This document shows positions 1,532 to 18,620 of a stretch of DNA of 30,788 nt, one piece after another. Below the pieces are notes generated by a model. That model did not search any database. It saw only the letters and a program-made list of their open reading frames with translations, and was not told where the DNA came from. The stretch's first letter is position 1. Every line of letters begins with the position of its first letter. Source of the stretch: an uncultured bacterium (GTDB lineage: Bacteria > Krumholzibacteriota > Krumholzibacteriia > LZORAL124-64-63); the NCBI GenBank assembly GCA_903847545.1, contig CAINDZ010000414.1, forward strand, positions 1-30,788, read 5' to 3'. Both the position numbers and the translations under genes were made by a program.

Positions 1532-1709
1532 GTTCACCGCCATTTAAGGCGAAAGGCCGGGTTCCACGGGCCCCTCGGGGGACAGTCGTGCGCCCCGGCA
1601 GGCATGCCGATGCGTGCGAACTACGGCGTGCTTTTTTTTGCCGTCCGTCGTCTTTTTTCGCGCGTATTTTCGCGACAACGGTTGGGTTCGATGTCCGGGG
1701 AGTGCCAAG

Positions 1710-3305
1710 ATGAACCGTTCCCTGCAGATGAAAGCAGGGCTGTGTGCCGTCATCATCCTTCTGGCGATTTACGGCATGCTGCCGACTTTCAAGGCCCTTG
1801 CGATCTCGCACGCCGAGCGGGAGGCCGCCAAGGCCAACCCGACGCGCCTGGCGCAGATCGAGGAGATCGATGCCAAGGCCATCCGCCGCGGCCTTGACCT
1901 CAAGGGCGGTATGTACCTGGTCCTGGAAGTGGACCAGACCGGCATGGATCCGAACCAGGCCGCCGATTCGTTGAAGCGGGTGAAGGAGATCCTTTACAAC
2001 CGCATCGACAAGTTCGGTGTTTCCGAGCCCGAGATCACGACCTTCGGCTCGAACCGCATCGTGGTGAAGCTGCCGGGCCTGCAGGATCCCGAGCGCGCCA
2101 AGGCGCTGCTGGGCAAGACGGCCAAACTCGAGTTCCGCCTCGTGCGCCAGCCCGACGAGATCACCGACGCCCTGACGCGCATGGACCAGGCCTTCCTCGG
2201 CGACAAGAACTTCGCCGCCGCAGTCGACACCACGCTGGGCGCGGACCCGGCGGCCCAGCGGCCGTTCAGCGGCCTGCTGGTCACCCAGCCCGGTATCACG
2301 AGCACGCCGCTGTTCGTGGCCGAGGAGGATGTCGACCGCGTCGTCGCCATGCTGGACGACCCGCGGGCGCTGTCGCGCCTGCGTGGCGTCGAGTTCCAGT
2401 TGGGCATGGAATCCCTGTCGTCCGGCGCCCGCAAGCTGCGTCCGCTGTACCTGGTCGATGGCAAGGCGTCGGTCAGCGGCGACCAGTTGACCGATGCCCA
2501 GGCCAGCGCCAACAACGAGCGGCCGGGCCTGTGGCAGGTCAACTTCAGCCTCGGGACGCGCGGCGCCCGCGAGTTCGCGCGCCTGACCGGCGAAAACGTC
2601 GGCCGCTACCTGGCCATCTCGCTGGACGGCCGCATTTCGTCGGCCCCGGTGATCCAGTCACGTATCGCGGGGAACGGGACGATCAGCGGCAACTTCACGA
2701 ATGACGAGGCGTCCGACCTCGCCCTGCTGCTCCGGGCCGGCGCCCTGCCCACCGACATCTCGATCGCCGAGGAGCGCACGGTCGGGCCGAGCCTCGGCTC
2801 GGACTCGATCCGCATGGGTGTCAACGCATCGCTCGTCGGTTCGCTGCTTGTGGTGCTCTTCATGGTGGTGTACTACCGCGTGGGCGGCCTGGTGGCCGTC
2901 GTCGCCCTGGTCGCCAACATCCTGATCCTGCTGGCGGTCCTGGCGCAGTTCAACCTGGTGCTGACGTTGCCGGGCCTGGCCGGCATCGCGCTGACGGTCG
3001 GCATGGCGGTGGATGCCAACGTGCTCATCAACGAGCGCATCCGCGAGGAACTGCGGAAGGACAAGTCGGTCCGGGCGGCCGTGCAGGCCGGCTACCACAA
3101 CGCTTCGCGGACGATCGTCGACTCGAACCTGACGACGCTGATCGCCGGCGTCGTGCTGCTGTGGTTCGGCACCGGTCCGGTCAAGGGTTTTGCGGTCACG
3201 ATGTCCATCGGCATCCTGACGAGCATGTTCACCGCGCTGGTCATGACCCAGGTCATCACCGACATGATGCTCCTGAACCCGAAGAAGCAGACGCTCAGTA
3301 TCTGA
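1710..3305 (+). CDS. secD: Protein translocase subunit SecD (531 aa)
   Basis: GLDLKGG, RIVVKLPG, EERTVGPSLG and GMAVDANVLINERIREE motifs. Start moved from 1614 to ATG 1710, which follows GGGAG. Confidence 0.97.
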   Translation: MNRSLQMKAGLCAVIILLAIYGMLPTFKALAISHAEREAAKANPTRLAQIEEIDAKAIRRGLDLKGGMYLVLEVDQTGMDPNQAADSLKRVKEILYNRIDKFGVSEPEITTFGSNRIVVKLPGLQDPERAKALLGKTAKLEFRLVRQPDEITDALTRMDQAFLGDKNFAAAVDTTLGADPAAQRPFSGLLVTQPGITSTPLFVAEEDVDRVVAMLDDPRALSRLRGVEFQLGMESLSSGARKLRPLYLVDGKASVSGDQLTDAQASANNERPGLWQVNFSLGTRGAREFARLTGENVGRYLAISLDGRISSAPVIQSRIAGNGTISGNFTNDEASDLALLLRAGALPTDISIAEERTVGPSLGSDSIRMGVNASLVGSLLVVLFMVVYYRVGGLVAVVALVANILILLAVLAQFNLVLTLPGLAGIALTVGMAVDANVLINERIREELRKDKSVRAAVQAGYHNASRTIVDSNLTTLIAGVVLLWFGTGPVKGFAVTMSIGILTSMFTALVMTQVITDMMLLNPKKQTLSI

Positions 3306-3381
3306 CCAACGCGCACTGCGGCCGGCGCCCCGAGGGGCGCGGCCGTCGCCGGGATCCGACCCGGGAAAGGCCAAGAGCAAG

Positions 3382-4311
3382 ATGCAGTTCTTCACGAAGC
3401 CCAACTTCAATTTCGTCGGTGCGATGAAGTTCGCCTTCTCGCTTTCCGGCGTGGCGGTGCTGGCGAGCCTGATCCTGCTGCTCGTGCACGGCGGTCCCCG
3501 CTGGAGCATCGACTTCACCGGCGGTTCCGTGCTGCAGGTCAAGTTCGCCTCGTCGCCCGGCATCGCCGCCGTGCGGCAGACGCTCGAGAGCAAGGGGTAC
3601 GCCGGTGCCCAGGTGACCGAATTCGGCGCCACGGACGAGTTCCTGATCACCCTGCCGGCCAAGAAGGGCGCCGGCGGCGCGGAGGCCGCGACGGCCGCCC
3701 AGCGCGTGCTCGACGACCTGCGCGCCACCTACCCGAACGGCCAGATCGACATGCGTCGCTCCGAGTCGGTCGGCCCCAAGGTGGGCGGTGAACTGCGGAC
3801 GGCGGCCATCAACTCGGTCGTCGTCGGCCTGTTCCTGATTGCGGTGTACATCTGGTTCCGGTTCGTGCTGCGCTACGGCTTCGCCGCGATCCTGGCGCTC
3901 TTCCACGACGTGATCCTGACCCTCGGCATCTTCTCGCTGCTCAATCTCGAGGTCAGCCTGCAGATCGTGGCCGCGCTGCTGACGATCGTCGGCTACTCGA
4001 TCAACGACACGATCGTGGTCTTCGACCGTATCCGCGAGAACATGAAGCTGCGCCGCAAGGAGAGCTACCGCGAGGTTATCAACCGGTCGATCAACGAGAC
4101 CCTCAGCCGCACGATCCTGACGTCGTTGACCACTTTTACGGTGGCAGTGGTGCTGTGGATCATGGGCGGTCCGGTGATCCGCGACTTCGCGTTCGCGATG
4201 AGCTTCGGCGTGTTCGTCGGCACGTACAGTTCGATCTTCATCGCCAGCCCGCTGCTGGTGTGGTGGTCGGACCGCCAGATCGACAAGAAGCAGGCTGCTT
4301 TGGAGATGTAG
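3382..4311 (+). CDS. secF: Protein translocase subunit SecF (309 aa)
   Basis: IDFTGG, ESVGPKVG and GYSINDTIVVFDRIRE motifs. Directly follows secD. Confidence 0.97.
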   Translation: MQFFTKPNFNFVGAMKFAFSLSGVAVLASLILLLVHGGPRWSIDFTGGSVLQVKFASSPGIAAVRQTLESKGYAGAQVTEFGATDEFLITLPAKKGAGGAEAATAAQRVLDDLRATYPNGQIDMRRSESVGPKVGGELRTAAINSVVVGLFLIAVYIWFRFVLRYGFAAILALFHDVILTLGIFSLLNLEVSLQIVAALLTIVGYSINDTIVVFDRIRENMKLRRKESYREVINRSINETLSRTILTSLTTFTVAVVLWIMGGPVIRDFAFAMSFGVFVGTYSSIFIASPLLVWWSDRQIDKKQAALEM

Positions 4312-4522: not shown

Positions 4523-5662
4523 CTACCGGATCGTGGGGAATGGGGAAGCGCCCGAGCTGCCGTGGCAACTCACGCAAGCCCGCCCCTCCTCATGACTCTC
4601 GTCATGACACTTCTTGCACAACTGCCCCTGGCCCACGCCGGGATACGGGCTCGGCAGCGCGTACGACCCCGACACGACCCCGTCGTCGGCCAGGCGGTAG
4701 ACCCGGAAATCCCAGCGCCCGGCCGCCGGCCCCGACGATCCGTGCGCCCGGTGGCAGGTCAGGCACATCAGCCTGCTGCCGGCCTGCGGCCCACTGGTGC
4801 CGGTGACCGTCATGGCGGCGTCCTCGAACGGGACCTGGGAGACATAGGCATCAACGCTGCTGCCGGTCCCGGGGCTGGCATCGCCCTCGTAGCGGTTGTA
4901 CCGCGTGCGTTCGTCGGAGCCGAGCGTCCCGTCCACCGGGTGCTCGAACGCGGCGCCGCTGCCTTCCTCGTGGTACATGCCGTGGCAGTTGGCGCACCAC
5001 CGGGACATGCCTGAGCGGTAGGCGGTGTGCGACGCGGCCGTTTCCGTGGCGCCGGAGTCGGTGATGTCGAGCCCCTCGGCGACGGGCGCGGGATACAGGA
5101 AGTTCGCCACGCCGTTCTGCACCGGCCCGGGGCCATTCAATGACCGGAACCCGTCCGAGCCGTGGGGGTCGTGGCAGCTGGTGCAGCCGAGCAGGGCCGA
5201 CGGGAACGTGCCGCCGGGGGCGTGCGACCAGCGGGGATCGGCGTTCGTGCCCCGCGCGGGCGACACGATGTTGTGTCCCGAGGCGTGGCCGCCGAGGGGC
5301 GACGCGGCCCCGCCGGCGGCGTCATTGATGTTGTCCTCGAGCAGCCACGTGAAATTTCCGGCGCCCCGCTCGGCAGGAGGCACGTTCGGCGCCGGGCCGA
5401 AGACGCCGTAGCTGCCGTGACAGGTCAGGCAGAGGTCGGTGGCCGAGGCCGCCACCAGCAGGGGGCGCGTGCCGTCGAGGGCGATCTCGCCGGCGGCCGC
5501 ATCGTGCATGATGTGGCAGGTTCCGCAGGAGCCGACGCCGCCCGCATGAATGGGGCCGCCGTGGGCCGGCACGGCTGCCAGCACCCAGGCCAGGCCGGGC
5601 GCCATGACGAGGACGCAGGCCTTGCGCAAGGCCCGGACGCGGCGGGATCGTGAAGGCGTCAT
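4523..5662 (-). CDS. OmcS-family multiheme cytochrome c, paralogue 2, seven CxxCH (379 aa)
   Basis: CGTCH, CLTCH, CTSCH, CANCH, CLTCH, CKKCH and CVSCH. OmcS-type motifs HAGGV..C..CHIMH, GHNIV, APGGTFP, GMSRWCANCH, VPFED and CLTCHRAH. Signal peptide present. Start moved to ATG 5662. Confidence 0.85.
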   Translation of the reverse strand: MTPSRSRRVRALRKACVLVMAPGLAWVLAAVPAHGGPIHAGGVGSCGTCHIMHDAAAGEIALDGTRPLLVAASATDLCLTCHGSYGVFGPAPNVPPAERGAGNFTWLLEDNINDAAGGAASPLGGHASGHNIVSPARGTNADPRWSHAPGGTFPSALLGCTSCHDPHGSDGFRSLNGPGPVQNGVANFLYPAPVAEGLDITDSGATETAASHTAYRSGMSRWCANCHGMYHEEGSGAAFEHPVDGTLGSDERTRYNRYEGDASPGTGSSVDAYVSQVPFEDAAMTVTGTSGPQAGSRLMCLTCHRAHGSSGPAAGRWDFRVYRLADDGVVSGSYALPSPYPGVGQGQLCKKCHDESHEEGRACVSCHGSSGASPFPTIR

Positions 5663-5732: not shown

Positions 5733-5779
5733 GCCCGCAAAAGCGGGCGGGCCCCGCGGATCGCTCCGCGGGGCCCGCC
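5733..5779 (-). terminator. Terminator or stabilising hairpin after the omcS-like gene
   Basis: Perfect 15-bp stem (5746-5760 / 5765-5779) with a GCGA tetraloop on the minus strand, then CGCTTTT. An alternative hairpin GCCCGC-TTTT-GCGGGC (5733-5748) overlaps it. Confidence 0.7.
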
Positions 5780-5809
5780 TCAAGGGCCATCAGGCCGACC
5801 AGTCGGCTC

Positions 5810-6907
5810 CTAGTAGAGCTTGTGGTCGTTGTAGTCCTTGGCATGGCACTTGTTGCACAGCGAGCGCTGGTTCGCCGAGAACGTGTAGCCATAGTACTTG
5901 CGGTCGACATCGGTCTGGATGAAGCCGGTGTCGGTCGCCAGCGGGTGCGACTGCGAGATCAGCATGACGCTCATGTCCCAGCGGGCGGCGTCCGCGAACG
6001 GCGAGGCGTGGGCGCGGTGGCAGGTCAGGCACATGACTTCGTCAGCGCCGTCCGGGCCCACCGTGTTCGTCGTCGAGTTGACGGTCGCCACGTCAGCCTG
6101 CACGTCCTCGAAGGGCACCAGGCCGTTGTACGACGTGGCCTGCGTGCCGCTGGTCATGTCGTCGGAGCTCACGTACGCGTTGTACGCGGCGGCGATCGTC
6201 GAGCCCAGCTCGCGCGTCGGGTGCACGAAGTTGGTCGTGTTGTCCTCGTGGAAGTTCTCGTGGCAGTTCGCGCACCAGTCGCTCATGCCGCTGATGTACA
6301 CGGTGTGCTTGGCGTTGGTCTCGTCGCCGTTCGTGGCGGAGCCGACGTAGGTGCGGCGGCTGTTGCCCTTGGCGATCGGGGCCGGGTTGGCGAAGTCATA
6401 GCGGCCACCGGCGTAGAAGGGGCCGAGGTCGGCGCCGTACAGCAGGCGGAAGTTCTGGTTGCCGTGGGGGTCGTGGCAGCTGGTGCAGCTCAGGTTGGCG
6501 CCCGAGAAGTCGCCGCCGGGGGCGGTCGTCAGCGTCACGTCGGCAGCGATGCCCTTCGTGGGAGCGACGACGTTGTGGCCGTGGCTGTCGCCCTTGCTGA
6601 TGCCCGTCGAACCCCAGGTGAACGTGCGGGTCACCCAGTAGAAGTCGCCGCCGGGGCCGTAGCCCTGGCCGTTCATGAACTGGCCGTAGTTGGCGTGGCA
6701 GCGCAGGCAGGTGTCGCTCGGCGAGCCGGCGTTCAGCAGGAACTCGTTGCCGGCGGGATGGGCGGCGTCGACGACGGCGCCGTTCTGGCTGTTGTGCATG
6801 GTATGGCAGCCGGCGCAGTAGGCGACGCCACCATCATGGAACGCGAGCACGGAGCTGGCCGACAGGCCGAGCACCAGCACCAGGGCGAACTTGATGAGAT
6901 TCTTCAC
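5810..6907 (-). CDS. omcS: OmcS-like hexaheme cytochrome c, putative nanowire subunit (365 aa)
   Basis: Sec signal MKNLIKFALVLVLGLSASSVLA, then FHDGGVAYCAGCHTMHN, PGGDF, GHNVV, TLTTAPGG, CTSCHDPHG, GMSDWCANCH, CLTCHRAHAS and QRSLCNKCHAKD. These are collinear with G. sulfurreducens OmcS as I recall it. Six CxxCH. GTG start at 6907 with GGAGG 7 nt upstream. Confidence 0.9.
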   Translation of the reverse strand: MKNLIKFALVLVLGLSASSVLAFHDGGVAYCAGCHTMHNSQNGAVVDAAHPAGNEFLLNAGSPSDTCLRCHANYGQFMNGQGYGPGGDFYWVTRTFTWGSTGISKGDSHGHNVVAPTKGIAADVTLTTAPGGDFSGANLSCTSCHDPHGNQNFRLLYGADLGPFYAGGRYDFANPAPIAKGNSRRTYVGSATNGDETNAKHTVYISGMSDWCANCHENFHEDNTTNFVHPTRELGSTIAAAYNAYVSSDDMTSGTQATSYNGLVPFEDVQADVATVNSTTNTVGPDGADEVMCLTCHRAHASPFADAARWDMSVMLISQSHPLATDTGFIQTDVDRKYYGYTFSANQRSLCNKCHAKDYNDHKLY

Positions 6908-7065
6908 GAGTGAGCCTCCAGAAGCAAGTTTGCTGGTCCCGCACGACGGCACGGAACCGTTACGAGTGACCTTTGCCGATCCGCTGCCGGAAGGCCTGGC
7001 AGGATCGACGCCGAACGAACCATCCACCTTGCAGAGACGCCTTCCACGAACCTCTTCCCAAACCA

Positions 7066-7083
7066 GCCCGGCCGAAGCCGGGC
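7066..7083 (-). terminator. C(UUCG)G tetraloop hairpin just after the NHL gene
   Basis: Minus strand GCCCGGC-TTCG-GCCGGGC followed by TGGTTT. Could be a weak terminator or a processing/stability element. Confidence 0.45.
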
Positions 7084-7087
7084 ATGT

Positions 7088-8068
7088 CTATTCAGCCGTC
7101 CCGATGGCCTGGACGTTGAATACCTGCACCAGGCTGCGGAACGACTGCGCCACGTAGACGTGGCCGTTGCCGTCCGCCGCCATCGACACCGGGTAGTAGA
7201 AGGCGCCCGGTGTGTCGCCGATCGAGCCGTACTCGGCCACGAACTCGTTCCGGCCATCGAAGGCCATGATCTTGTGGCGCAGCTGGTCCAGCACCAGCAG
7301 CGTCCCGCCCGGGCCGGCCGCGGCGGCGACGGGGAACACCATGCGGCCGGGGGACGAGCCCACGCGACCGAAGCTGCCGGTCTGCTGGCCATCCTCGTCG
7401 ACGACCAGCATCACGTGGAGGTTGCCGCCGGGCACGCGGAACGTGCCGTCGGGCATCTGCGCCGGGCGCCCGAGGTTCATGTCCAGCTGGGCGTCGTCGT
7501 TCTGGCCCTCGCCGATGACGTGCGACCACAGTAGGGCGCCGGTGTCCTTGTCGTGCTTGGCCATCAGGCCGCTCGCGCCGTCCACCGTCACGTAGTGGCC
7601 GTCGCGTGCGACCAGCAGGTGCGTGGGGCGCCAGTCGCCCGCGGGGCGCTCGACACGGTAGCCGTCGGGTTCGCCGTAGGTGTCCAGGCGCACGATCGAC
7701 GCGTCCTGCCCGTCGACCGCCGACGTGGCCACGAGGCGGCCCTCATGGTCGACGGCGCCGTCGCTCGGCAGCGAGATGCCCGCGAAGCCGCCGGTGCGGA
7801 AAGTCTCGCAGCCCGCGGCGTTGAACACGTGCAGCGCGCTGTAGGCGGATTCGGTGACGCAGATCTCGCCGGCCACGGCATCGCAGGTGACGGCTGCGGG
7901 GCGGGCCCGGCCGTCGTGGTTCTGCGAGAGGTTCAGCGCGCCCGAATACTGGAAGCTGACCGTGCCGGTCGTCGCAGCCGCCACCGACGCAAACGCAAGG
8001 GCGGCTGTTATCACAGCAACACCCTGGAGGCCGTTCGCGATCGTGGTGGAGGGGCGATGGAAGGTCAC
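7088..8068 (-). CDS. Exported NHL-repeat beta-propeller (326 aa)
   Basis: NHL-like repeats (FGRVGSSPGRMVFPVAAA, YGSIGDTPGAFYYPVSMAADGNGHVYVA...VQVF). N-terminal hydrophobic signal. No CxxCH. Confidence 0.8.
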   Translation of the reverse strand: MTFHRPSTTIANGLQGVAVITAALAFASVAAATTGTVSFQYSGALNLSQNHDGRARPAAVTCDAVAGEICVTESAYSALHVFNAAGCETFRTGGFAGISLPSDGAVDHEGRLVATSAVDGQDASIVRLDTYGEPDGYRVERPAGDWRPTHLLVARDGHYVTVDGASGLMAKHDKDTGALLWSHVIGEGQNDDAQLDMNLGRPAQMPDGTFRVPGGNLHVMLVVDEDGQQTGSFGRVGSSPGRMVFPVAAAAGPGGTLLVLDQLRHKIMAFDGRNEFVAEYGSIGDTPGAFYYPVSMAADGNGHVYVAQSFRSLVQVFNVQAIGTAE

Positions 8069-8133: not shown

Positions 8134-8161
8134 ATCATATCACACGCCCGGACGATGTCAA
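8134..8161 (-). promoter_or_regulatory. Sigma70-type promoter for the NHL/omcS-like unit
   Basis: Minus strand TTGACA (8161-8156), 16-nt spacer, TATGAT (8139-8134) with an extended TG, and an upstream T-rich tract. Confidence 0.75.
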
Positions 8162-8260: not shown

Positions 8261-8348
8261 GAAAACAGAAGCGGCAGGCCGGGGAAACCGGCCTGCCGCC
8301 CGGGGTTGGAACGCCCCGCGGGAGGGTTTGGCGACCCTCCCGCAGGGG
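8261..8348 (-). terminator. Double hairpin / intrinsic terminator after the 42-heme cytochrome
   Basis: 10-bp stem at 8318-8343, then a perfect 12-bp stem at 8271-8299 followed by TTCTGTTTT on the minus strand. Confidence 0.8.
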
Positions 8349-8357
8349 TGTCGGAAG

Positions 8358-11300
8358 CTAGGAACCCTCGCGCTTGGGGCGCAGCTTGTCGGTGTGGCAA
8401 CCGATGCAGAGCTTGCCGTCGGGATCATCCCGCAGGAAGCGCACGAACTGCGACCCGTGCGGGTCGTGGCAGCTGTCACACGTCATCTTCAGGCCCGTGC
8501 GGGGATCGACGGTCGTCTCGCCCATCGGGTGGTCGGTGTGGTCCCGGTAGGTGTGGCACGCCAGGCAAACCTCGGGGGCCTTGACGCCGTCGGTGCTCTT
8601 GGGAGCCGCCAGGTGCGGGTCGTGGCAGGCCGTGCAGAGGTCTCCCTTCACCTCGGGATGGCGATGGGCCGCCTTGCGGTTGAGGTCCACCTTGTCCTGG
8701 TGGCACGTGCCGCAGATGGCCGCCTGCGACCGCGGCAGCAGCGGCGCGTTCGGCGACGTGTGCGGCGAGTGGCAAACCGTGCAGGCCTTCTCGCCCGTCA
8801 GCGGGGCGTGCAGGGTCCCTGTCTTCAGGTCCTCCTTCATCGCCACGTGACAGCCGAAGCACAGCGCCGGCTGCGCGGCCTTCGTCGCCTTCGTGCTGCC
8901 GACATGGCAAGCCGCACAGTTGCCCTGCGCGAACGGCGCGTGCTCGTTCGGGTGGGGCAGGTTCGCCCGCTTGGCGGCGTGCGGCGTGTGGCAGCCCGCG
9001 CAGTCCGCGTCGGCCACCGGGAAGCCGCGGTGCTTGGCCGGCAGCGCCTGCGGCGCGTGGCACTTGGCGCACAGGACCTTCGTCTCGGCGACCAGGTTCA
9101 TCTCCACCGGGCCGCCGTGCGGGTCGTGGCAGCGCGTGCAGGCGCCGGTCTTCAGCGGCGCGTGCACCACCGGCAGCTTCTTGAGCTCCTCGATGGGCTT
9201 GTGGCAGCTGACGCACAGCTCCGCGGCCGGCAGCCGGAGCAGCTTCGGCTGCGGCGAGGCATGGGGGCTGTGGCAGGCCTCGCAGCGACCCTCGCGCACG
9301 GGGGTGTGGGCGAGCTCCGGCCGGGGCGTCAAGGTGGACGGGTCGTGGCAGGTCGCGCACACCACGGCCGTCGTCGTGCCCTTCAGGAAATGCTCGCCGC
9401 GCGAGACGTGGGGGTTGTGGCACGCGCTGCACTCGCCGTCCCCGAACGGCGCATGCACCGTCTGCCCCGGGGCCGCGGCGTCCGGCAGGCTGTCGTGGCA
9501 CTGGGCGCAGACCGGCGTCTGGTTGGCGATCGGCTCGGCCGACTGGTGGCAGCTGGCGCAATCGCGGTCGGCGAACGGCGGGTGGGCCTTGGCCACCAGC
9601 AGGCCCGGCACGGTCGCGTTGTGCGGCTCGTGGCAGTCCAGGCACGCCATGGAGGCCCCGTCGCGCCCGCGGTGCTTCTCCTGGAAGCCGGCGCCCTTCT
9701 CGTCATGGCACCGGAAGCAAAGCGCCGGCACCTTGTCGCGCAGGAACCCGGGACCCTGGCCGCCGTGGGGGAGGTGGCATTCCAGGCACTCGCCCTGGCT
9801 GGGCGGGTGGATGGAGGCGGCGCCCTTCGGCGCGGCGATGTCCTCGTGGCACAGCCCGCAGAGCTTGTCCTTGTCGGCGACCAGGAGCACCTTGCGCGTC
9901 GAGCGGTGCGGATCGTGGCACGCCGTGCAGTTGCCGTCGCTCACCGGCTTGTGGCCCTGCCAGCCCGTTCCGGACGGCTGCCCCACGTCGTGGCAGGCCG
10001 CGCAGGTCGGGGCCACCGGCTGCCGCAGCAGCGCGTGCTCCTGCCCGCCGTGCGGCAGGTGGCAATCCAGGCAGGCGCCCTCGGCCGCCGGCGGGTGCAG
10101 CGCGCCGCCCTCGGGCTGCTTCGACAGGTCGGCGTGGCAGCCGGCGCACAGGGCCGCCGGGGCCTTGGTCAGCAGCGCGGGCTGGTCCGAGGTGTGCGGC
10201 TTGTGGCAAGCCAGGCACTCGCCGCGGGCCACCACGTCGTGCGTGTTCGGGGCCGAAAGTTCCAGCTGCACCTTGGTGTGGCAGCCGAGGCACAGCGTGC
10301 CGGCTTCCTTGCGCAGCAGGGCCGGATGGCTGGCGCTGTGCGGGTCGTGGCACACCGAGCACGCCTGCTTGGCCAGCGGGGCGTGGACCACGGTCGCGGT
10401 CGCGCCCGCCGCCGGCAGGACGTCGGTGTGGCAGCCGGCACAGACGGCGTTCGTCTCGTCCTTCATCAGCTTGGGACGGTCGCCGCCGTGCGCGTCATGG
10501 CATGTGCTGCAGGCGCCCTCGGCCGCCGGCGCGTGCTGGACGGCGCGCTCGAACGGCTGCGATTCGTGGCAGGACAGGCAGACCTTGCGCTCGCCGGCCA
10601 CCAGCAGGGCCGGCCGCGCGCTGCCGTGCGGCGCGTGGCACTGCACGCACTCGTGCTCGGCCGCGGGCGGGTGCGGGACCTTGCGCGACGCCGGGTCGTC
10701 GTGGCACTGCACGCAGAGTTCGGCGGCGGGCACCGTCAGGGCGCCCTTCGCGGCGGTGGGCGAAAGGTCGTGGCACTGCGCGCAGTCGCCGTCGGCCATC
10801 GGCGCGTGCTGCACCGCGTACTGCAGGTTCTCGCCGTCGGCGCTGTGGGGGTCGTGGCACGACACGCAGCCCGAGACCGTGCCCTGGACCTTGTGCGCCT
10901 TGGCCAGCTTGCCGGCATCGGCGTGGCACGACAGGCACATCTGGTCGCCCGGCAGCTTCAACAGGCCTGCGTTGTCCGACGCGTGCGGGTCGTGGCACGC
11001 CGCGCAACCGCCCTTGGCCAGGGGCTGGTGCACGTGCTTGCGCTGGTACGGCTTGGGGTCGTGGCACTTGAAGCATGCCGCCTGGCCGGCCGCCGGCAGC
11101 AGTCCCGGCTGGCCCGAGCCGTGCGGGTCGTGGCAGCCGGTGCAATCGCCCTTGCGCAGCGGGTCGTGCACGACGTCACGCTTCGTCACGCCGATCAGGT
11201 CCTTGTGGCACTCGGTGCACAGGTCCTTGCCCGTGTTCTTCAGCACGAGCTTGCCGATGACCCCGTGGCGCCGGTGGCAGCCCTCGCAGTCGCGGGCGGC

Positions 11301-11486
11301 AAAGGGCTGGTGGGCCGACTTCGCGGGGACCTTCTTCAGCGTCTCCTGGTGGCAATCGACGCATCCCTTCGTCTTGAAGCCGGCGGCCGCGGCCGGGGCG
11401 GCGCACAATCCGGAGACGAGGGCCAGCGCCAGGAGGGCCCCCAGGGCGTCCCGGCGACGGGCATGGGCAGCGGTGCTGTGATCCAC
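8358..11486 (-). CDS. Giant multiheme cytochrome c with 42 CxxCH motifs (1042 aa)
   Basis: 42 CxxCH counted by hand. Signal peptide ends ...AAPAAAA. GTG start at 11486 with AGGAGG 7 nt upstream; the track start at 11846 overlaps the upstream gene. Confidence 0.93.
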   Translation of the reverse strand: MDHSTAAHARRRDALGALLALALVSGLCAAPAAAAGFKTKGCVDCHQETLKKVPAKSAHQPFAARDCEGCHRRHGVIGKLVLKNTGKDLCTECHKDLIGVTKRDVVHDPLRKGDCTGCHDPHGSGQPGLLPAAGQAACFKCHDPKPYQRKHVHQPLAKGGCAACHDPHASDNAGLLKLPGDQMCLSCHADAGKLAKAHKVQGTVSGCVSCHDPHSADGENLQYAVQHAPMADGDCAQCHDLSPTAAKGALTVPAAELCVQCHDDPASRKVPHPPAAEHECVQCHAPHGSARPALLVAGERKVCLSCHESQPFERAVQHAPAAEGACSTCHDAHGGDRPKLMKDETNAVCAGCHTDVLPAAGATATVVHAPLAKQACSVCHDPHSASHPALLRKEAGTLCLGCHTKVQLELSAPNTHDVVARGECLACHKPHTSDQPALLTKAPAALCAGCHADLSKQPEGGALHPPAAEGACLDCHLPHGGQEHALLRQPVAPTCAACHDVGQPSGTGWQGHKPVSDGNCTACHDPHRSTRKVLLVADKDKLCGLCHEDIAAPKGAASIHPPSQGECLECHLPHGGQGPGFLRDKVPALCFRCHDEKGAGFQEKHRGRDGASMACLDCHEPHNATVPGLLVAKAHPPFADRDCASCHQSAEPIANQTPVCAQCHDSLPDAAAPGQTVHAPFGDGECSACHNPHVSRGEHFLKGTTTAVVCATCHDPSTLTPRPELAHTPVREGRCEACHSPHASPQPKLLRLPAAELCVSCHKPIEELKKLPVVHAPLKTGACTRCHDPHGGPVEMNLVAETKVLCAKCHAPQALPAKHRGFPVADADCAGCHTPHAAKRANLPHPNEHAPFAQGNCAACHVGSTKATKAAQPALCFGCHVAMKEDLKTGTLHAPLTGEKACTVCHSPHTSPNAPLLPRSQAAICGTCHQDKVDLNRKAAHRHPEVKGDLCTACHDPHLAAPKSTDGVKAPEVCLACHTYRDHTDHPMGETTVDPRTGLKMTCDSCHDPHGSQFVRFLRDDPDGKLCIGCHTDKLRPKREGS
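8370..11365 (-). repeat. Tandem doubled-CxxCH protein repeats of about 40 aa
   Basis: The recurring unit HxP---G-CxxCHxPH-S----LL------LCxxCH is visible throughout the protein. Confidence 0.85.
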
Positions 11487-11506: not shown

Positions 11507-12856
11507 TCACTTCGAGGCCGCGTTGTTGATGGTGGCGGCATTGGCGGTCGCCGCCTTGGCGACCTCGGCGACGACGCGCGCCACTTCCTGCTCGGCACCG
11601 GGCAGGATGACGATCGGGGATTCCTTCTCCAGGCGCGCGATGATCATGGCCATGTGGTCGCGCATCGCGTCGCGCTTCATCATGCCCAGGATCTGCTCCC
11701 GGCACTGCTCCAGGGGCAGCGGCTGCCCGGGCTCCAGGGCGACGACCTGCGCGACCACCCAGCCGTCGGGCACCTGGTAGGGCTCGGGCACCATGTTCAG
11801 CTTCACGTCCTCGGGCTTCAGGCCCATTTCCTCCGGCCGCAGCCACATGTCGGGGAACGGCGCCGGCCCCTTGGCCACGCGCTTGTCGTTCTCGGCCAGC
11901 CAGCGCACCGTCGCGCCGCCGAGGATCTTCTCGCGCAACTGGTTGGCCACCTCGGGCGAGGCCGCCTTCAGGCTGGCCATCTTCAGGCGCGGCGGCGCGG
12001 TCACTTCAAGCGTGTGCGCGCGGTAGTAGTGCGAGATCTCCTGGCTCGTGGGCGCGAAGTCGAACTGCAGCAGGACGCGGAGCGCCTCCTCGAGGATCGT
12101 GCTGCGCTCGAAGCGCGCGCGCAGCATCACCATCTGCGGCTGCTGGTCCATCTTCTGCGCCTTCAGCTGGCGGTTCACGGCGACCTGGGCCAGGTGGTCG
12201 CGCAGGATGTCGTCGCGGCGCTGCGAGGCGTCCGGCTTGCCGACCAGGCCGTGGAACTCGGTGAAGCGCAGCTCGCGCGTGAAGTCGGCGACCGTCAGTG
12301 AGCGGCCGTTGCCCACGCGGGCCAGCACCTCGGTGCTGTTCTGCAGGCGCTTCTGCACCGCGGCCTCGGCCGAGCCGTAGTCCAGCGACCGGAGCACCGT
12401 CGAGTCGACCGAGACGCCATAGCGGCGGAACAGTCCGTCCAGGTAGGCGCCGACCGCGGCCTTGCGCTTGTCCTGCACGCCCGGCGTCTCCGCGGGGATG
12501 GCCAGGGCGACGGAGTCGAGCAGTGCCTTCATGCACTCGTGACGGACGACCTCGTCGCACTGGTTGCGGACGGTGAACTCCTGGTCCAGGCCCATGCGGA
12601 AGCCTTCCTGGATGATCAGGTGGTTCTGCGTGAGCCGCTTGAGGATGTCCTTCGGCTCGCCGAACGACAGCGCGACGTTGTTCTCGTTCCTGACCTGCAT
12701 CAGGCCGAGCTCGATGTTCAGCTCCGTGGTGGTGACGGTGTCGGGCCCGACCAGCGCCAGGGGGATTTCCCGGGGTGTTTCCGCCATGGTGCGGACGGCC
12801 GAGGCCATCACGACGGCCGCGGTGGCCAGGGCCAGGCGCTTCGTTGTCGATTTCAT
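11507..12856 (-). CDS. SurA/PrsA-like exported chaperone with a parvulin-like domain (449 aa)
   Basis: ATG at 12856 with GGAGGAG and an ATGA overlap with the upstream stop. Signal peptide. Two 'LA.VG...T..EL/DF' SurA-N-like starts and a C-terminal 'A..L.EKI..G....LA...PEP..V.DGW.V..V' rotamase-like pattern. Confidence 0.7.
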   Translation of the reverse strand: MKSTTKRLALATAAVVMASAVRTMAETPREIPLALVGPDTVTTTELNIELGLMQVRNENNVALSFGEPKDILKRLTQNHLIIQEGFRMGLDQEFTVRNQCDEVVRHECMKALLDSVALAIPAETPGVQDKRKAAVGAYLDGLFRRYGVSVDSTVLRSLDYGSAEAAVQKRLQNSTEVLARVGNGRSLTVADFTRELRFTEFHGLVGKPDASQRRDDILRDHLAQVAVNRQLKAQKMDQQPQMVMLRARFERSTILEEALRVLLQFDFAPTSQEISHYYRAHTLEVTAPPRLKMASLKAASPEVANQLREKILGGATVRWLAENDKRVAKGPAPFPDMWLRPEEMGLKPEDVKLNMVPEPYQVPDGWVVAQVVALEPGQPLPLEQCREQILGMMKRDAMRDHMAMIIARLEKESPIVILPGAEQEVARVVAEVAKAATANAATINNAASK

Positions 12857-13929
12857 GGGGTGGGCTCCTCCAGGAGGCGTTGCAGGTTGGGCCAGAGTTG
12901 ATCGGCGCCCTTGCGCATCTGTTCCAGCAGCGTCGGCGTGTGCGTCAGCCCGAACCACCCGGTGTGCGGGGCGCCCGGGGCCAACACGGAGTCGGCCGCG
13001 CGGACACGCCCGGTCCCGAGGTCGAGCACGCGCCAGGTCATCGTCAGGTCCCCGGCCTCGCTGGCGCCGGCGGCGGCGTCCTCGGGCTCGGGCGGCGCGG
13101 CCACCGCGACGGCGCTGCCGTCGCGGCCGAACGAGACCACCTCGGCCTCGACGGCCAGGGCGACGCCGAAGGCCTGCGCCAGCAGGTCGCGTCCGCCGCG
13201 GTCCAGGCGGGTCAGGTCGCGACCGTCGGCCAGCGCCACCCCCGTGGCCAGCGCGGGATCGAGCACGCGCCGCGAGGTGTCGCGCACCGCCTCGGCGAGC
13301 AGGCACGTCGTGGCCTGGCGCGCCGCCAGGGCGTCCAGGCCGATGCCCGTGCCCGGCAGCACGAGCAACGCGGCGCCCTTGCCGGTCAGGTTGCGCAGCG
13401 AAGGCATCGCGTCGCGAAGCACGTCGACCAGGGCGTGTTGCCAGCGGCCGGTGGGGACGGGCGCCTCGGCGATGCGGATGTCGGCCAGCCTGCCCGTGCC
13501 GGTCGCCACGGACCGCCCGGTCGCCGTGAAGCGACCGTCGCCGGAAAGCAGCGTGAAGGCGACCAGCGTCTCGGCGCCCACCTCGTCGCGCAGCCCCGAC
13601 AGGAACGCCGGCGGCAACGACGCCGCCGAGCGAACCCGGAAGCGGTGGACGAGTTCCTCGGTGGCGGCGCGGTCGGCCAGCGGCTGGTCGGTGGCGCCGA
13701 CCATCGCGGCGATCATGTCCAGCGCCGTGCGGCGCACGGTCGCGACATCGGCCTCCAGGCCGGCCACGGGATCGCCCTCGATGTGCAGCATGATGGCGAT
13801 GGTCCCGGGTCGCGGCGCCTGCCCGGCGGCGACCAGCGTGTCGGGCGCGTCCCCGGCAGCGCCGGCGCCCGTCGCCAGGAGCAGCCCGGCGACGGCGCAC
13901 AGCAGGCGGCTGCCGGGCACGATGCGCAT
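12853..13929 (-). CDS. Exported protein with two tandem CsgG/TolB-N-like domains (358 aa)
   Basis: Signal peptide. Two 'G.....V...V/L ... R.V/LD..TGR' patterns (EVGAETLVAFTLL..RSVATGTGR and AFGVALAVEAEV..RVLDLGTGR). TGATG coupling to the upstream gene. Confidence 0.5.
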   Translation of the reverse strand: MRIVPGSRLLCAVAGLLLATGAGAAGDAPDTLVAAGQAPRPGTIAIMLHIEGDPVAGLEADVATVRRTALDMIAAMVGATDQPLADRAATEELVHRFRVRSAASLPPAFLSGLRDEVGAETLVAFTLLSGDGRFTATGRSVATGTGRLADIRIAEAPVPTGRWQHALVDVLRDAMPSLRNLTGKGAALLVLPGTGIGLDALAARQATTCLLAEAVRDTSRRVLDPALATGVALADGRDLTRLDRGGRDLLAQAFGVALAVEAEVVSFGRDGSAVAVAAPPEPEDAAAGASEAGDLTMTWRVLDLGTGRVRAADSVLAPGAPHTGWFGLTHTPTLLEQMRKGADQLWPNLQRLLEEPTP

Positions 13930-14510
13930 CAGAACAGGGTCTCCAGCGCGGCGCGGACGTTGGCGCGGGCCACGTCGAAGATGCCGGCCGTGCCGCCGCC
14001 GAACAGCTTGCGCATGACCGAGGTGCCGTCGGTGCGGGTCTGCGAGGACCAGACCAGGCGCCCGGTCTGCGTCTCGTGCAGCTGGTAGACCGACGTAACG
14101 ACCTGCGCGGGGTCATGCGCGGAGCGCTCGGTGCCGTATTCCTCGACGGTCCCGAAGAAGACGCCGTCGACCTGCAGTCGCTTGCCCAGTTCCATGACCT
14201 GTTCGGGGCTCATCACGCGGTCGGGGGCGATCTTCATCTCGGACACGATCGCGAGCGTCTCGCCGCGGTCGGCCACCTCGACCTGCCCGGTCTTGAGGAC
14301 CTCGGTCACGAAGATCGACTGCACGCGCTGTGCCGCGAACGTGTCCTGCGTGAGGTTGTAGAAGGGGAAGATGGCGACCCGGCGAATGAAGCTGAAGTCG
14401 ACGTCCTCGCGGATGTACTGGCTGGCGCGGGGGCCGCATCCGGCCGCCAGCGAGCACAGGACCACCAGCGCCGTGGCCAGGCCGAGGGCTGCGTTCCTCG
14501 TGTACTTCAT
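13929..14510 (-). CDS. CsgG/GNA1162-like outer-membrane lipoprotein (193 aa)
   Basis: Lipobox LAAG-C25 with Gly at +2. RVAIFPFYN, ELGKRLQVDGVFFGTV and ETQTGRLVWS match this fold family. ATG at 14510 after AAGGA. Confidence 0.7.
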   Translation of the reverse strand: MKYTRNAALGLATALVVLCSLAAGCGPRASQYIREDVDFSFIRRVAIFPFYNLTQDTFAAQRVQSIFVTEVLKTGQVEVADRGETLAIVSEMKIAPDRVMSPEQVMELGKRLQVDGVFFGTVEEYGTERSAHDPAQVVTSVYQLHETQTGRLVWSSQTRTDGTSVMRKLFGGGTAGIFDVARANVRAALETLF

Positions 14511-14580
14511 CGTTCGTCCTTTCGCCGGTCGGCCCGCACCCGCAGGGCAGCCCGTCACACGAAAATCTGCGATACCGCAG

Positions 14581-16779
14581 TCAGAATGTCCAATATGCGC
14601 GCAACTGGAACCCGAACGGCCAGCTTTCGTGCCCTTCGAGCCGCTCGAAGTTCTTTTCGACGCTGCCGGCCAGGGACAGGCGCGTCCGCGCCTGCCAGTC
14701 GACGGTGACACTGCCGCCGCGGCGCAACTGGCCGGTGCGCGAGTCCTGGTAGTCGTTCGCCTGGAAGGACGTGAGCACGCTGCCGCCGCGGAGCGGGCTC
14801 CACGAGAGGGTGTTGCGGACGATCCAGTCAGTTTGCTCCCGGCGCTGGCTGGTGGCCTGGCACGACCACGAAAGCAGGGGCCTGATCTCCCAGGAAGCGT
14901 CCACTTCGGCCTCGCCGAACGACGTGAAACCCGAGCCGGCCTGCTGCCCCACCCAGCGCTCGGTCCGGCGCACGTCCAGGCGCACGCCGGGACGCGGCAC
15001 GCTACGGATCTCCGAGGCCACCAGCCACGAATCCGAATCGGCCGTCCCGTATTCGCCGGTGCGCCAGCTGCGCGACACGCGCTGGACGAACGTCAGCTGG
15101 GGGGCCGCCTGCCAGGTGGCGTCCGTCATGACGGACTCGGTGACCTGCCGGACGCTGTAGGTGTTGTCGCGGGCCTGCATCCACGACAGCCTGGCCGACA
15201 GGGCTCCGGGGTCGCGCCGGGCCAGCGAAACCTGTCGCGTGTTGGACTCCGAACGCAATCGCGTCGGGCTCTCCTCGGTGTTCGTCTGGTACTGCCCGGA
15301 GAGCGACCAACCGGCCACGCGCCATGTCGCCAGCGCACCCTTGTTGACGCGCTCGAGACGGCCGATGCCCAACTGGTCGCGCCGATCGAGGTTGCCGTCG
15401 ATCCTCACCTGCAGGCTCGGGGCGGGGCTGAATTCGAGGGCGCCGGCGAGCGTTGTCCGCTCCTGCCGCGACGAGCGGTTGGGCTGCCCGGTCTCCGTGG
15501 GCCCGTAGACCTCGAACTCGGTGACGAACAGGTCGCCGAGCGTCGGCCCCAGCTTCCGGTCCACCAGCTTCAGGCGGCGATGCGAGACCGACCCGGTGAA
15601 GGTGATCTCCCACCCCTGGCGCCCCGACTCCTGCTCGACGTAGCGGATGCTCCAGGCGCCCGGGGCCACGGCGCTGCCCCAGTCGCGGCCTTCCGCCTCG
15701 TCGCAGAAATAGAGGTCCCACTGGAACATCGCGGGGATGCTGCCGATCCGGCGGTCCACGTAGAGGAACGCCGACGTCATCGCCACGGGCTCGCCGAAAT
15801 CGAGGGTGATGTTCCGGTAGTCGCCGCCGAAGTCGCGCCCGGCCGGCGCGTTGTCGCCGAGGTTGATGATCGTGGGGACCAGGCGGTCGTTGTCGAACAG
15901 GGCCGGCACCTGCTCCGGCTGCGTCTCGAGCGGATCGAGGAAGCTCGGCGTGTCGTCCACGCCGAAACCGCCGGTCACCGGCTGCCGGTATTGCGACACG
16001 ATGTCGCCGGTGAATTCCTCGCGCTGGTCGAAGCGCCGGTGGCCCATCGTCCACGACACGCGCCCGCGCGGACCGGCAAAGGCGCGGTTGCCCTGGTATT
16101 CCACCTGCTGTGTCGTGTAGCGGGCCAGGCGGTTGTTCGTGACGGCGTCCTGCTCGACGAGCGTCGCGCGGTACTGGAGATTGTCCTGGCGGGAGAGGTC
16201 CAGGCGCAGCCTGCCGCTGCCGAGGCGGTCGCGGTTCTCGCGGTCCTCGCCCTCGGCGCGCCGCCACGACGCGTTGTCCTGGTAGTTCGCGTCGCCCGAA
16301 AGCCTGCCCAGGCGGGCGCTGGTCCACACGCCGAACTCGAGGCTGTCGTCCCGTTGAGCCGGGATGCCGACGAAGTCCTGGTCCGAGCGATTGCCCCGCG
16401 CGAACGCATTGAAGCGCCAGCTGCCGGCCTGCATCGCCAGGCTGCTCGAAGGCGAGAGCACGGTCATGTGGTTGTCGACCGTCGTGCCCGCCGCCGTGCC
16501 CCGCAGCAGCTCGCGCCGGGCCGTGTACTGGAACTGCAGGCTGGCCCGCTGCGAGAGGCGGATCGTCTGGTCCACGCCGAACAGGTGCCACTGGTTGTCG
16601 CTGCTGTACGCGGTGCCGCCGGAGTTGCCCTCCTGGTGCAGCGAGCGCACGTCGAACCTGCCGTCGAGCGCGAGTGCGGGACCGACCACGCCGGCCACGA
16701 CCATGCCGGCCACCAACAGGCGACCGACACATGCCACGCAGTGGCGCTCGGGACGGGGCTTCGCGGCGAGCGGCGACAT
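14581..16779 (-). CDS. Large outer-membrane beta-barrel protein with an inserted soluble domain (732 aa)
   Basis: Signal peptide, alternating amphipathic beta-strands throughout, and C-terminal GFQLRAYWTF ending in an aromatic residue (BAM-type signal). Confidence 0.75.
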   Translation of the reverse strand: MSPLAAKPRPERHCVACVGRLLVAGMVVAGVVGPALALDGRFDVRSLHQEGNSGGTAYSSDNQWHLFGVDQTIRLSQRASLQFQYTARRELLRGTAAGTTVDNHMTVLSPSSSLAMQAGSWRFNAFARGNRSDQDFVGIPAQRDDSLEFGVWTSARLGRLSGDANYQDNASWRRAEGEDRENRDRLGSGRLRLDLSRQDNLQYRATLVEQDAVTNNRLARYTTQQVEYQGNRAFAGPRGRVSWTMGHRRFDQREEFTGDIVSQYRQPVTGGFGVDDTPSFLDPLETQPEQVPALFDNDRLVPTIINLGDNAPAGRDFGGDYRNITLDFGEPVAMTSAFLYVDRRIGSIPAMFQWDLYFCDEAEGRDWGSAVAPGAWSIRYVEQESGRQGWEITFTGSVSHRRLKLVDRKLGPTLGDLFVTEFEVYGPTETGQPNRSSRQERTTLAGALEFSPAPSLQVRIDGNLDRRDQLGIGRLERVNKGALATWRVAGWSLSGQYQTNTEESPTRLRSESNTRQVSLARRDPGALSARLSWMQARDNTYSVRQVTESVMTDATWQAAPQLTFVQRVSRSWRTGEYGTADSDSWLVASEIRSVPRPGVRLDVRRTERWVGQQAGSGFTSFGEAEVDASWEIRPLLSWSCQATSQRREQTDWIVRNTLSWSPLRGGSVLTSFQANDYQDSRTGQLRRGGSVTVDWQARTRLSLAGSVEKNFERLEGHESWPFGFQLRAYWTF

Positions 16780-16986: not shown

Positions 16987-17832
16987 TCAGGGGACTTCCG
17001 TCATGGACGCCATCAACCGGGTGTCGGCCGTCGGTCCCGAGTTCTTCAACTGGTGGCAGCCGAGGCAGAGTTCGGGCTGCGTCGGGAACGCCACCAGCAG
17101 GTCGCGCTGCCCGCCCGTCAGGGAGTGGCACGTCTGGCACTCGACCTTGCCGTCGAACAGGCGCAGGCGCGGGTCGATCGGCGAGCGCAGGCGACGCTCG
17201 TCGTGCCCTGAACCGGCCACGGCTTCGACACCCAGGGGGTGGGTGGCGTGCTGGTTGAAGGTCAGCGATTCGCCGCCGGCGTCACCCTGCCAGGTCGAGC
17301 CGCTGCCGCTGGCGTGGCAGTTGAGGCAGCCCTGGCTCGGTGACTGGCCTGCCAGCAGCGCCGCATCGCGATGATACAGGGCTGCGGCGGCCCGGTGCGC
17401 CGGCGAGAGTTTCGACAGGTCGGCGCCGGGCTCGTGGCAGCCGGCGCAGTGCGCCGGGACGCCGTCACCCAGGCCCTCGGCCGGCATGGTCAAGGTGCCG
17501 ACCGATGTCTTGAGCCGGCCGAGGTCATGGAACGTGTGACATCCGGCGCAGTCGGCCTTGGGGTCGTCATGGAAGCCCAGCTGGCGCGACGCCGGCGATC
17601 CCTTGGCGGACACGTCGCGATGGCACGTGCGGCACGCCCGCGAGCGGGGGTCCGGGTCGTCGGGACCGGCGGTCGCGACCGCCCGCGCGGCGGCTCCCAG
17701 GTGGCAGCGCGCGCAGGCGATCCCCTCGTGCGGATCCGCAGCCGACGCCGAAAGCCCGTTCGCGGCCACGGAGGCTGCGGACAGGAGCAGGGCCGACAGG
17801 ACGGCAAGGTGCGTGCGCAAGGTGTCATTCAT
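16987..17832 (-). CDS. Exported heptaheme cytochrome c (281 aa)
   Basis: CARCH, CRTCH, CAGCH, CAGCH, CLNCH, CQTCH and CLGCH. Signal peptide from M at 17832. No clear RBS. Confidence 0.85.
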   Translation of the reverse strand: MNDTLRTHLAVLSALLLSAASVAANGLSASAADPHEGIACARCHLGAAARAVATAGPDDPDPRSRACRTCHRDVSAKGSPASRQLGFHDDPKADCAGCHTFHDLGRLKTSVGTLTMPAEGLGDGVPAHCAGCHEPGADLSKLSPAHRAAAALYHRDAALLAGQSPSQGCLNCHASGSGSTWQGDAGGESLTFNQHATHPLGVEAVAGSGHDERRLRSPIDPRLRLFDGKVECQTCHSLTGGQRDLLVAFPTQPELCLGCHQLKNSGPTADTRLMASMTEVP

Positions 17833-18028
17833 GCCGCAAGGTTTCGGATGATTTCTTAAATGCTTTAGTATTTTGTTGTATTGTGCGAAACCATGGCCGT
17901 CGCTGCCGGGGGACGGCCTGTATTCTGCGGGATACGGTCGGGCCGCGTGCGTGTTAACATGAGTGACGTGAAACGGCGTGCGGACACGGGCTTGCCCGTC
18001 CATCGCGTCGGTCCACCGGCGTCACGGG

Positions 18029-18105: not shown

Positions 18106-18612
18106 ATGGACATGCGCCGACATCGCCAAGCGCCGGAACCCCGGTTCCGCCGGGCCGCCTGCCTGTCGGGCCTGTTCGTGCTGCTGGCCGTCCTGCCTCT
18201 CGCGGCAACGGCGGCGCCGCAGGCCCGCGGCGAGCATGCGCGACCGGCGGGGGATGCGCCGGGAGACGTGTTCTCGCGGCTGGCGTCGGCGTTCGAATCA
18301 GGCGATGCAGGCGGCCTGGCCGCGCTCGTGCATCGCGAGGGCCTGGCCGTCACGGACCGCGGCGAGCGATCCAGCGAGTACAGTCCCAGCCAGGCGCTCT
18401 ATTTCTTCAAGAACCTCTTCCAGGGGCAGCGCACGCTGCTGTTCGCGTACCGCACGTCGCCCGACGATGGTGACGGAGGCCGGGCCCGGGCCATGGCGCA
18501 GTGGAAGCGTCGCCGGATCGACTCCGAAGTGGTCGTCGAGGTGCAGGTGGTCCTCGTGCTGGCGCTCGACGAAGGGCGCTGGCGTCTCGCCGAGATCAAC
18601 ATGGTTCGCTAG
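18106..18612 (+). CDS. Small exported NTF2-like protein, DUF4783-like (168 aa)
   Basis: Signal peptide. AFESGDAGGLA, EYSPSQALYFFKNLF and GRWRLAEI resemble DUF4783. Start uncertain (18061, 18106 or 18112). Confidence 0.55.
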   Translation: MDMRRHRQAPEPRFRRAACLSGLFVLLAVLPLAATAAPQARGEHARPAGDAPGDVFSRLASAFESGDAGGLAALVHREGLAVTDRGERSSEYSPSQALYFFKNLFQGQRTLLFAYRTSPDDGDGGRARAMAQWKRRRIDSEVVVEVQVVLVLALDEGRWRLAEINMVR

Positions 18613-18620
18613 GAGGCGCG

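Follow-up and report, generated by a model that had tools for sequence, protein, structure and literature searches.

The question raised by this locus is whether a hexaheme cytochrome from an uncultured member of the Krumholzibacteriota, here called P1, is the subunit of a filament like that of OmcS from Geobacter sulfurreducens (GSU2504; PDB entries 6EF8/6NEF). The P1 gene lies in a contig of 30,788 nucleotides, the whole of which was analysed and is referred to as the window. Filament formation has been shown for OmcS only, and P1 is known here from its sequence. Within the family the G. sulfurreducens OmcS is the one proven wire, its paralogues not being known to form wires (PMC12977616). 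From the evidence set out below, P1 is a good candidate for a secreted filament subunit, for which polymerisation is plausible and is backed by the gene context. To our knowledge, the OmcS paralogues OmcT, OmcJ and GSU2501 are uncharacterised.

The P1 reading frame was translated without interruption over its full length (Table 1). The cleavage site of its signal peptide was placed by alignment to residue 1 of mature OmcS, giving the mature N-terminus FHDGGVAYCAGCHTMHN. The features from which an earlier note on this DNA had started, namely a mature N-terminus with His16, six CxxCH motifs (mature positions 9-13, 45-49, 119-123, 190-194, 271-275 and 329-333) and a mature chain of 343 aa, are all present in the sequence. 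Charged residues make up 14.8% of P1, the lowest proportion in the cluster, and N/S/T/Y/Q 30%, the highest; GC3 is also the highest in the cluster (0.954), with a lower overall GC content (0.667 versus 0.715 for the rest of the cluster). Such a composition and codon usage point to an extracellular protein that is strongly expressed. Searches of Pfam and NCBIfam with P1 returned generic multiheme matches (Paired_CXXCH_1 and similar) and no OmcS-specific model.

Table 1. Features of the P1 locus, in window coordinates.
Feature	Position	Strand	Remarks
Heptaheme cytochrome	16987-18003	-	First in transcription order
732-aa protein, OscE position	14581..16779	-	Weak BLAST match (E 0.002) to the 752-aa protein of L080; found by profile once in each of 66 loci, L080 and L054 among them
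LpoB/GNA1162-like lipoprotein, OscF position	13929..14561	-	E 5e-31 to the L080 gene; start approximate
LpoB-like two-domain protein, OscG position	12853..14112	-	Iterated profile reaches the OscG-position genes of L080 and L054
PPIase/SurA-like chaperone, OscH position	11507..~12901	-	Weak BLAST match (E 3e-4); start approximate
Giant multiheme cytochrome, OscI position	8358..11486	-	E 2e-127; start uncertain, reading frame open to 11846
Terminator-like site	8269-8301	-	After the giant cytochrome gene
Sigma-70-like promoter	8134-8161	-	11/12, extended -10; before the NHL gene
NHL beta-propeller, 326 aa	7088..8068	-	E 7e-16; homologous to propellers flanking OmcS-like genes in Geobacter-type osc clusters
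Terminator-like hairpin	7066-7083		Right after the NHL stop
GGAGG ribosome-binding site	6915..6919	-	7 nt upstream of the P1 GTG start (6907); read from the sequence
P1, compact OmcS-family hexaheme cytochrome gene	5810..6907	-	Stop included; precursor 365 aa, mature chain 343 aa
P1 signal peptide, 22 aa	6842..6907	-	Sec-like, ends in VLA; mature chain begins Phe-His, like OmcS
P1 His16 codon (CAC)	6794..6796	-	Aligns with OmcS H16; predicted inter-subunit ligand of the neighbour's heme 5
P1 heme-5 motif CLTCH, mature 271-275	6017..6031	-	Equivalent to OmcS C328-H332; predicted acceptor of the next subunit's His16
Two GC-rich hairpins	5733..5776	-	In the P1-P2 intergenic region, the fold of which has z -2.9
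P2, heptaheme OmcS-family paralogue	4523..5662	-	Immediately downstream of P1

When all PDB sequences were searched with P1 (phmmer), OmcS (6ef8/6nef, 407 aa) was the sole match, with E 4.9e-57, and the pairwise alignment with 6EF8, a check that the earlier note had proposed, set His16 of P1 against H16 of OmcS. The aligned sequence falls into three blocks, corresponding to OmcS residues 1-56, 81-153 and 186-407. A structure predicted with AF2 from an alignment of 95 family sequences (A1) had a pLDDT of 88.6 and a pTM of 0.86. In a Foldseek search with this model, 6ef8_A alone was found at E<0.1 (E 5e-25, TMq 0.79), and comparison using VIA-align superposed 325 of the 343 residues on 6EF8 with Z 32.4, an rmsd of 2.6 A and 44% identity, the next match having Z 4.8. 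The earlier note's description of P1 as an OmcS homologue is borne out by the sequence match, the fold and the conserved ligands, and it is firmly supported, as judged from the predicted structure, that P1 is a true OmcS relative with the OmcS fold.

The two proteins have six CxxCH motifs in identical order and the N-terminal motif F-H-x-G-G-V-A-x-C-x-G-C-H-T-M-H-N, which includes His16, and all six distal histidines of OmcS (H2, H16, H110, H147, H257 and H335) are kept in P1. They differ in length, as the earlier note had stated, the 6ef8_A chain having 407 aa and mature P1 343 aa, or 64 residues fewer. After heme 2, OmcS residues 57-80 are matched by 7 residues in P1, and after heme 3, residues 154-185 are matched by almost nothing; smaller deletions lie between hemes 4 and 5 and between hemes 5 and 6, and the C-terminal tail of P1 is 7 residues longer than that of OmcS. 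Because the superposition on 6EF8 extends over 325 residues, P1 can be described as the OmcS core minus the long loops.

Of the 12 histidines that serve as axial ligands in OmcS, 11 belong to the subunit that holds the heme, and the remaining one, on heme 5 (heme 505), is contributed by an adjacent molecule (PMC6584659). Among 95-108 homologues, exactly 12 histidines are invariant: those of the six CxxCH motifs together with H2, H16, H89, H126, H207 and H278 (mature P1 numbering), which correspond to OmcS H2, H16, H110, H147, H257 and H335. The OmcS residue that binds the neighbour's heme 5 was reportedly identified as His16 by Wang et al. in 2019. At the sequence level, the twelve histidines of P1 fit the OmcS ligand count and H16 aligns with OmcS H16, and since no invariant histidine is left to spare, heme 5 of P1 most likely takes His16 from another chain. 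The earlier note had listed six other candidate distal histidines, five of which, H2, H89 (in GHNV), H126 (DPH), H207 (HP) and H278 (RAH), proved invariant; the sixth, the NFH histidine (H198), is conserved in only 75% of the family and is probably not a heme ligand. When stretches of 20 residues are ranked by conservation in the family, both the N-terminal 20 residues and the heme-5 segment are among the top three.

The N-terminal motif containing His16 was nearly identical in about 104 of the 108 family sequences, the four exceptions being heptaheme forms that were set out of register by trimming. Sequences bearing the motif came from Krumholzibacteriota, Eisenbacteria, Gemmatimonadota, Ignavibacteriota, Zixibacteria, Calditrichota, Acidobacteriota, Poribacteria, Thermodesulfobacteriota, Myxococcota and Nitrospirota, and His16 was also invariant in the Geobacteraceae paralogues sampled outside the OmcS-proper clade. 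The earlier note had put forward the retention of His16 as a distinguishing feature. As this residue is invariant across the whole family (about 100 members, more than 10 phyla), its retention is not diagnostic, and His16 was rejected as a special mark of P1.

Matches to P1 at E<1e-5 numbered at least 4600 proteins, family matches were present in at least 553 species genomes, and at E<1e-30 the family formed 142 clusters (50% identity) among 1.84 billion representatives. The family set used here consisted of 108 members from 80 genome loci and the window's own genome. Sixty of these are shorter than 350 aa, some being only 318-329 aa, and P1 lies near the median length, so the idea that it is unusually minimal was rejected. 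The compact forms (318-350 aa) are the phylogenetically widespread majority, and P1, which the earlier note had taken for a more minimal subunit, is an ordinary member that typifies its clade and does not stand out from it.

A maximum-likelihood tree divided the family into two clades, with SH-aLRT support of 97-98 for the split. Clade I contains Thermodesulfobacteriota, Myxococcota and Nitrospirota, with the long forms (377-449 aa), L072 among them, as a nested subclade; clade II contains the compact forms of the FCB group, Acidobacteriota and others, including P1 and P2, which occupy separate subclades. The OmcS-proper clade was anchored with L072, a protein from a Geobacteraceae MAG that aligns end-to-end with 6EF8 (E 2.8e-160), and the OmcS-type sequences L072_9860 and L080_8060 fall in clade I. 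P1 was not found inside the OmcS-proper clade (orthologues of about 407-420 aa) in this tree, being placed in the sister clade II, and this placement makes it co-orthologous to the OmcS/OmcT/GSU2501 group taken as a whole instead of an orthologue of OmcS. The largest length differences do lie after hemes 2 and 3, where the earlier note had seen trimmed loops, but the direction is reversed: judging from the sequences, it is the OmcS lineage that seems to have gained long loops by insertion, not P1 that has lost them. The smallest and most distant family member seen was a second hexaheme copy of about 305 aa, located close to the principal OmcS-like gene in each of two genomes from uncultured organisms (L019:12419-13333 and L020:9439-10356); it is very divergent (branch length 1.9) and has an N-terminus of the type ExHxExQVCSxCHTxHFSQH.

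The genes around P1 bear on its function. In PMC13194489 and PMC12977616 the osc (omcS-companion) cluster is given as GSU2502-GSU2493, after Shen et al. 2025, and its genes are proposed to act in the folding (OscH), secretion (OscE, F and G) and morphology of OmcS nanowires. GSU2501 is oscC and GSU2495 is oscI (PMC13194489), and the osc block may originally have served secretion, before nanowires (PMC12977616). In the window, all genes from 4523 to about 18000 lie on the minus strand, in the transcription order heptaheme cytochrome, 732-aa protein, LpoB/GNA1162-like lipoprotein, two-domain protein, PPIase/SurA-like protein, giant cytochrome, NHL protein, P1 and P2. In Citrifermentans bremense (L080) and Geobacter sp. 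AOG1 (L054), the OmcS-like cytochrome gene is followed downstream by genes for a propeller, for proteins of 752 aa, 196 aa (LpoB-like) and 375 aa, for a PPIase of 612 aa and for a cytochrome of 677 aa. For each of the five positions from OscE to OscI the window has a homologue, and these are collinear with the genes of the two loci and similar to them in size, with the difference that the OscI-position cytochrome exceeds 1000 aa versus 677 aa in L080. The osc names were assigned to the window genes by position and by homology to the Citrifermentans and Geobacter loci. Pairwise BLAST between window and reference genes gave the E values listed in Table 1, which are weak for the PPIases and the 732/752-aa proteins. 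Iterated profiles, applied to the loci only, linked every such pair of homologues, with one match per locus at the expected position, and genes like E, F/G and H occurred together in 54 of 83 loci. A search of the 732-aa window protein against Pfam gave no match; the OscE-position gene of Citrifermentans (L080:12750-15008) has a weak match to F5/8 type C (discoidin), with E 0.005.

The arrangement of the window differs from that of the osc cluster in that the genes run E-F-G-H-I, followed by the propeller and then by the cytochromes. The propeller-cytochrome module is downstream, not upstream, of the E-I block in the window and in its closest relatives (L001-L016, L023). A separate OscD-type beta-propeller (about 500-580 aa) was not found in the window, the sole propeller there being the NHL protein, and several other compact-clade loci are also without OscD. 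The window shares with hexahemes of the GSU2501 (OscC) type the presence of an OmcS-family gene beside an NHL/beta-propeller gene and an oscE-I-type block, and in loci of canonical order compact-clade members fill exactly the OscC-type position (PMC12977616). GSU2501-type proteins are encoded directly upstream of the osc block, whereas the window cytochrome genes are downstream of it and lack an OscD-type propeller, and the Geobacteraceae paralogues sampled all fall in the other main clade than P1.

Several further genes flank the cluster. Those resembling secD and secF (1614-4311, plus strand) adjoin the OmcS-like cluster in the window and likewise in L001, L002, L007, L023, L029, L033, L035 and L041; this adjacency, seen with both cluster arrangements in Krumholzibacteria-type loci, may be mere lineage synteny. 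Divergently oriented beside the cytochrome cluster is a gene for a 1595-aa sensor histidine kinase (18501-23288, plus strand) with C-terminal HAMP, HisKA and HATPase_c domains and a very long N-terminal region of unknown function. Beyond it, in a stretch of high GC content, are two large open reading frames on the plus strand, overlapping as listed, with matches to DUF4175 (24023-27613) and TPR (26944-29625).

An inter-chain ligand could also serve an assembly smaller than a filament. P1 may be a secreted or periplasmic monomer, dimer or short oligomer that acts as a surface electron shuttle or terminal reductase and forms no micrometre-long filaments, His16 being used for local pairing only or replaced in vivo. 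Such behaviour would have parallels in GSU2501, which is listed as periplasmic (PMC13194489), and in a homologue from G. uraniireducens that has been argued to form no long filaments (PMC6771412), and the absence from P1 of about 64 residues of OmcS loops also counts against a filament. It is at odds with the ligand set, as the 12 invariant histidines for six hemes leave none but His16 for heme 5, and with the geometry of the OmcS fold, in which His16 lies beside heme 1, at the opposite end of the stack from heme 5. The preservation across phyla of an obligate inter-chain ligand is hard to explain without at least head-to-tail association, and the P1 gene adjoins an osc-like block. We consider a monomer or short oligomer unlikely, while treating it as the main competitor to the filament. 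When two copies of mature P1 were predicted together, using alignment A1 and four hemes and without controls, the score was 0.00 in both runs, a value that weighs neither for nor against association.

P1 and P2 are neighbours on the contig. P2 has seven CxxCH motifs, the extra one being C-terminal and beyond the end position of OmcS, and keeps all 12 family-invariant histidines, including the equivalent of His16. Its orthologues have seven motifs in L001-L003 and six in more distant relatives, and its composition, rich in Ala, Gly, Arg and Pro, resembles the genome background. In the nearest relatives (L001-L004, L007, L012 and L016) the tandem arrangement of P1 and P2 has been kept. The MAG (3.8 Mb, 790 contigs, 96.5% complete) contains at least one further full OmcS-family gene, with 59% identity to P1, and two incomplete copies that run into contig ends and may be fragments of a single gene; the additional sites are C499:6743-7822, C499:8119-8643 and C689:2-361. 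Counting the further full gene and the partial copies, the family has expanded to 4-5 copies in this MAG.

The hairpins, the promoter and the terminator-like site within the co-oriented cluster (Table 1) suggest several transcription units, and the hairpins between P1 and P2 are possibly an attenuator or an RNA stabiliser. In an RNA-seq run from lake water, three contigs with 94-98.5% identity matched 5794-5994, 6144-6338 and 6860-7100, thus covering P1 and the upstream intergenic region; they derive from a related strain, and DNA carry-over is possible. In the same run no contig matched P2, and the NHL gene was touched in its last 13 nt only. A second RNA-seq run, identical in size, seems to be a duplicate deposit of these data. 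The window DNA was almost complete in three lake-water metagenome runs of one study, which are probably its source. Together with the composition of P1, these data hint that P1 is the major, abundant subunit and that P2 plays a minor part beside it.

A mixed assembly, in which the two proteins jointly form a hetero-filament, or in which P2, carrying one more heme at its C-terminus, serves as a cap, base or branch point of a P1 filament, so that P1 alone is not the functional unit, would account for the conserved tandem, for the retention of the 12 histidines beside a seventh CxxCH in P2 and for the unequal expression that the intergenic hairpins suggest, but seems improbable given the many compact-clade loci with a single cytochrome gene beside the osc block (e.g., L025, L037 and L038).

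The reading preferred here, that P1 forms filaments linked through His16, is held to be somewhat probable. On this reading P1 is a hexaheme c-type cytochrome that is exported by the Sec route, has the OmcS fold and belongs to a compact clade that is common in the FCB group and other non-proteobacterial phyla. All six hemes would have bis-His ligation, with five distal ligands (H2, H89, H126, H207 and H278) supplied by the same chain and the sixth, on heme 5, predicted by homology with OmcS to be His16 of the neighbouring subunit. Through this link the subunits are proposed to stack head-to-tail into a continuous heme wire. The PPIase chaperone would fold P1, the E-, F- and G-like proteins would carry it across the outer membrane and the giant periplasmic cytochrome would feed it electrons, with the NHL propeller and the osc-like genes jointly serving folding, export and electron supply. 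The analysis establishes the family membership, fold, ligand conservation and gene context of P1; that it reaches the cell surface, polymerises by way of His16 and takes part in extracellular electron transfer is what we infer.

OmcS matches in Krumholzibacteria MAGs have been reported before, with FeGenie as marker (bioRxiv 10.1101/2020.09.22.307553). That report concerns organisms of this kind, the nearest named relatives of the present MAG being Krumholzibacteriia, and this gene family, and is a marker-gene call only, without analysis of ligands, fold, clade or osc-like genes. The wide distribution of OmcS and the osc genes has also been published (Portela et al. 2024; PMC10954620). Lacking a solved structure or biochemistry, the compact clade is a reasonable experimental target, and the family alignment, by separating the OmcS core (325 superposable residues, 12 His) from lineage-specific loops, is useful for the engineering of smaller subunits; the biotechnological value that the earlier note saw in P1 is speculative. 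The 2025 work of Shen et al. reportedly also deals with how widely OmcS and the osc cluster are distributed.

We tentatively propose, while leaning slightly toward doubt, that the compact clade (318-350 aa) represents the ancestral, minimal OmcS-type nanowire, made in freshwater by bacteria of the FCB group such as Krumholzibacteriota with a rearranged osc system, and that Geobacter OmcS acquired its long loops later, by insertion. If this is true, OmcS-type wires would be widespread well beyond Desulfuromonadia, and a core of about 330 aa would suffice for polymerisation. Should the compact proteins indeed polymerise, OmcS-type nanowires would be a common tool of extracellular electron transfer, not restricted to Geobacter, and such wires would be present in uncultured phyla of freshwater and sediment, including Krumholzibacteriota, Eisenbacteria, Ignavibacteriota, Zixibacteria and Acidobacteriota.
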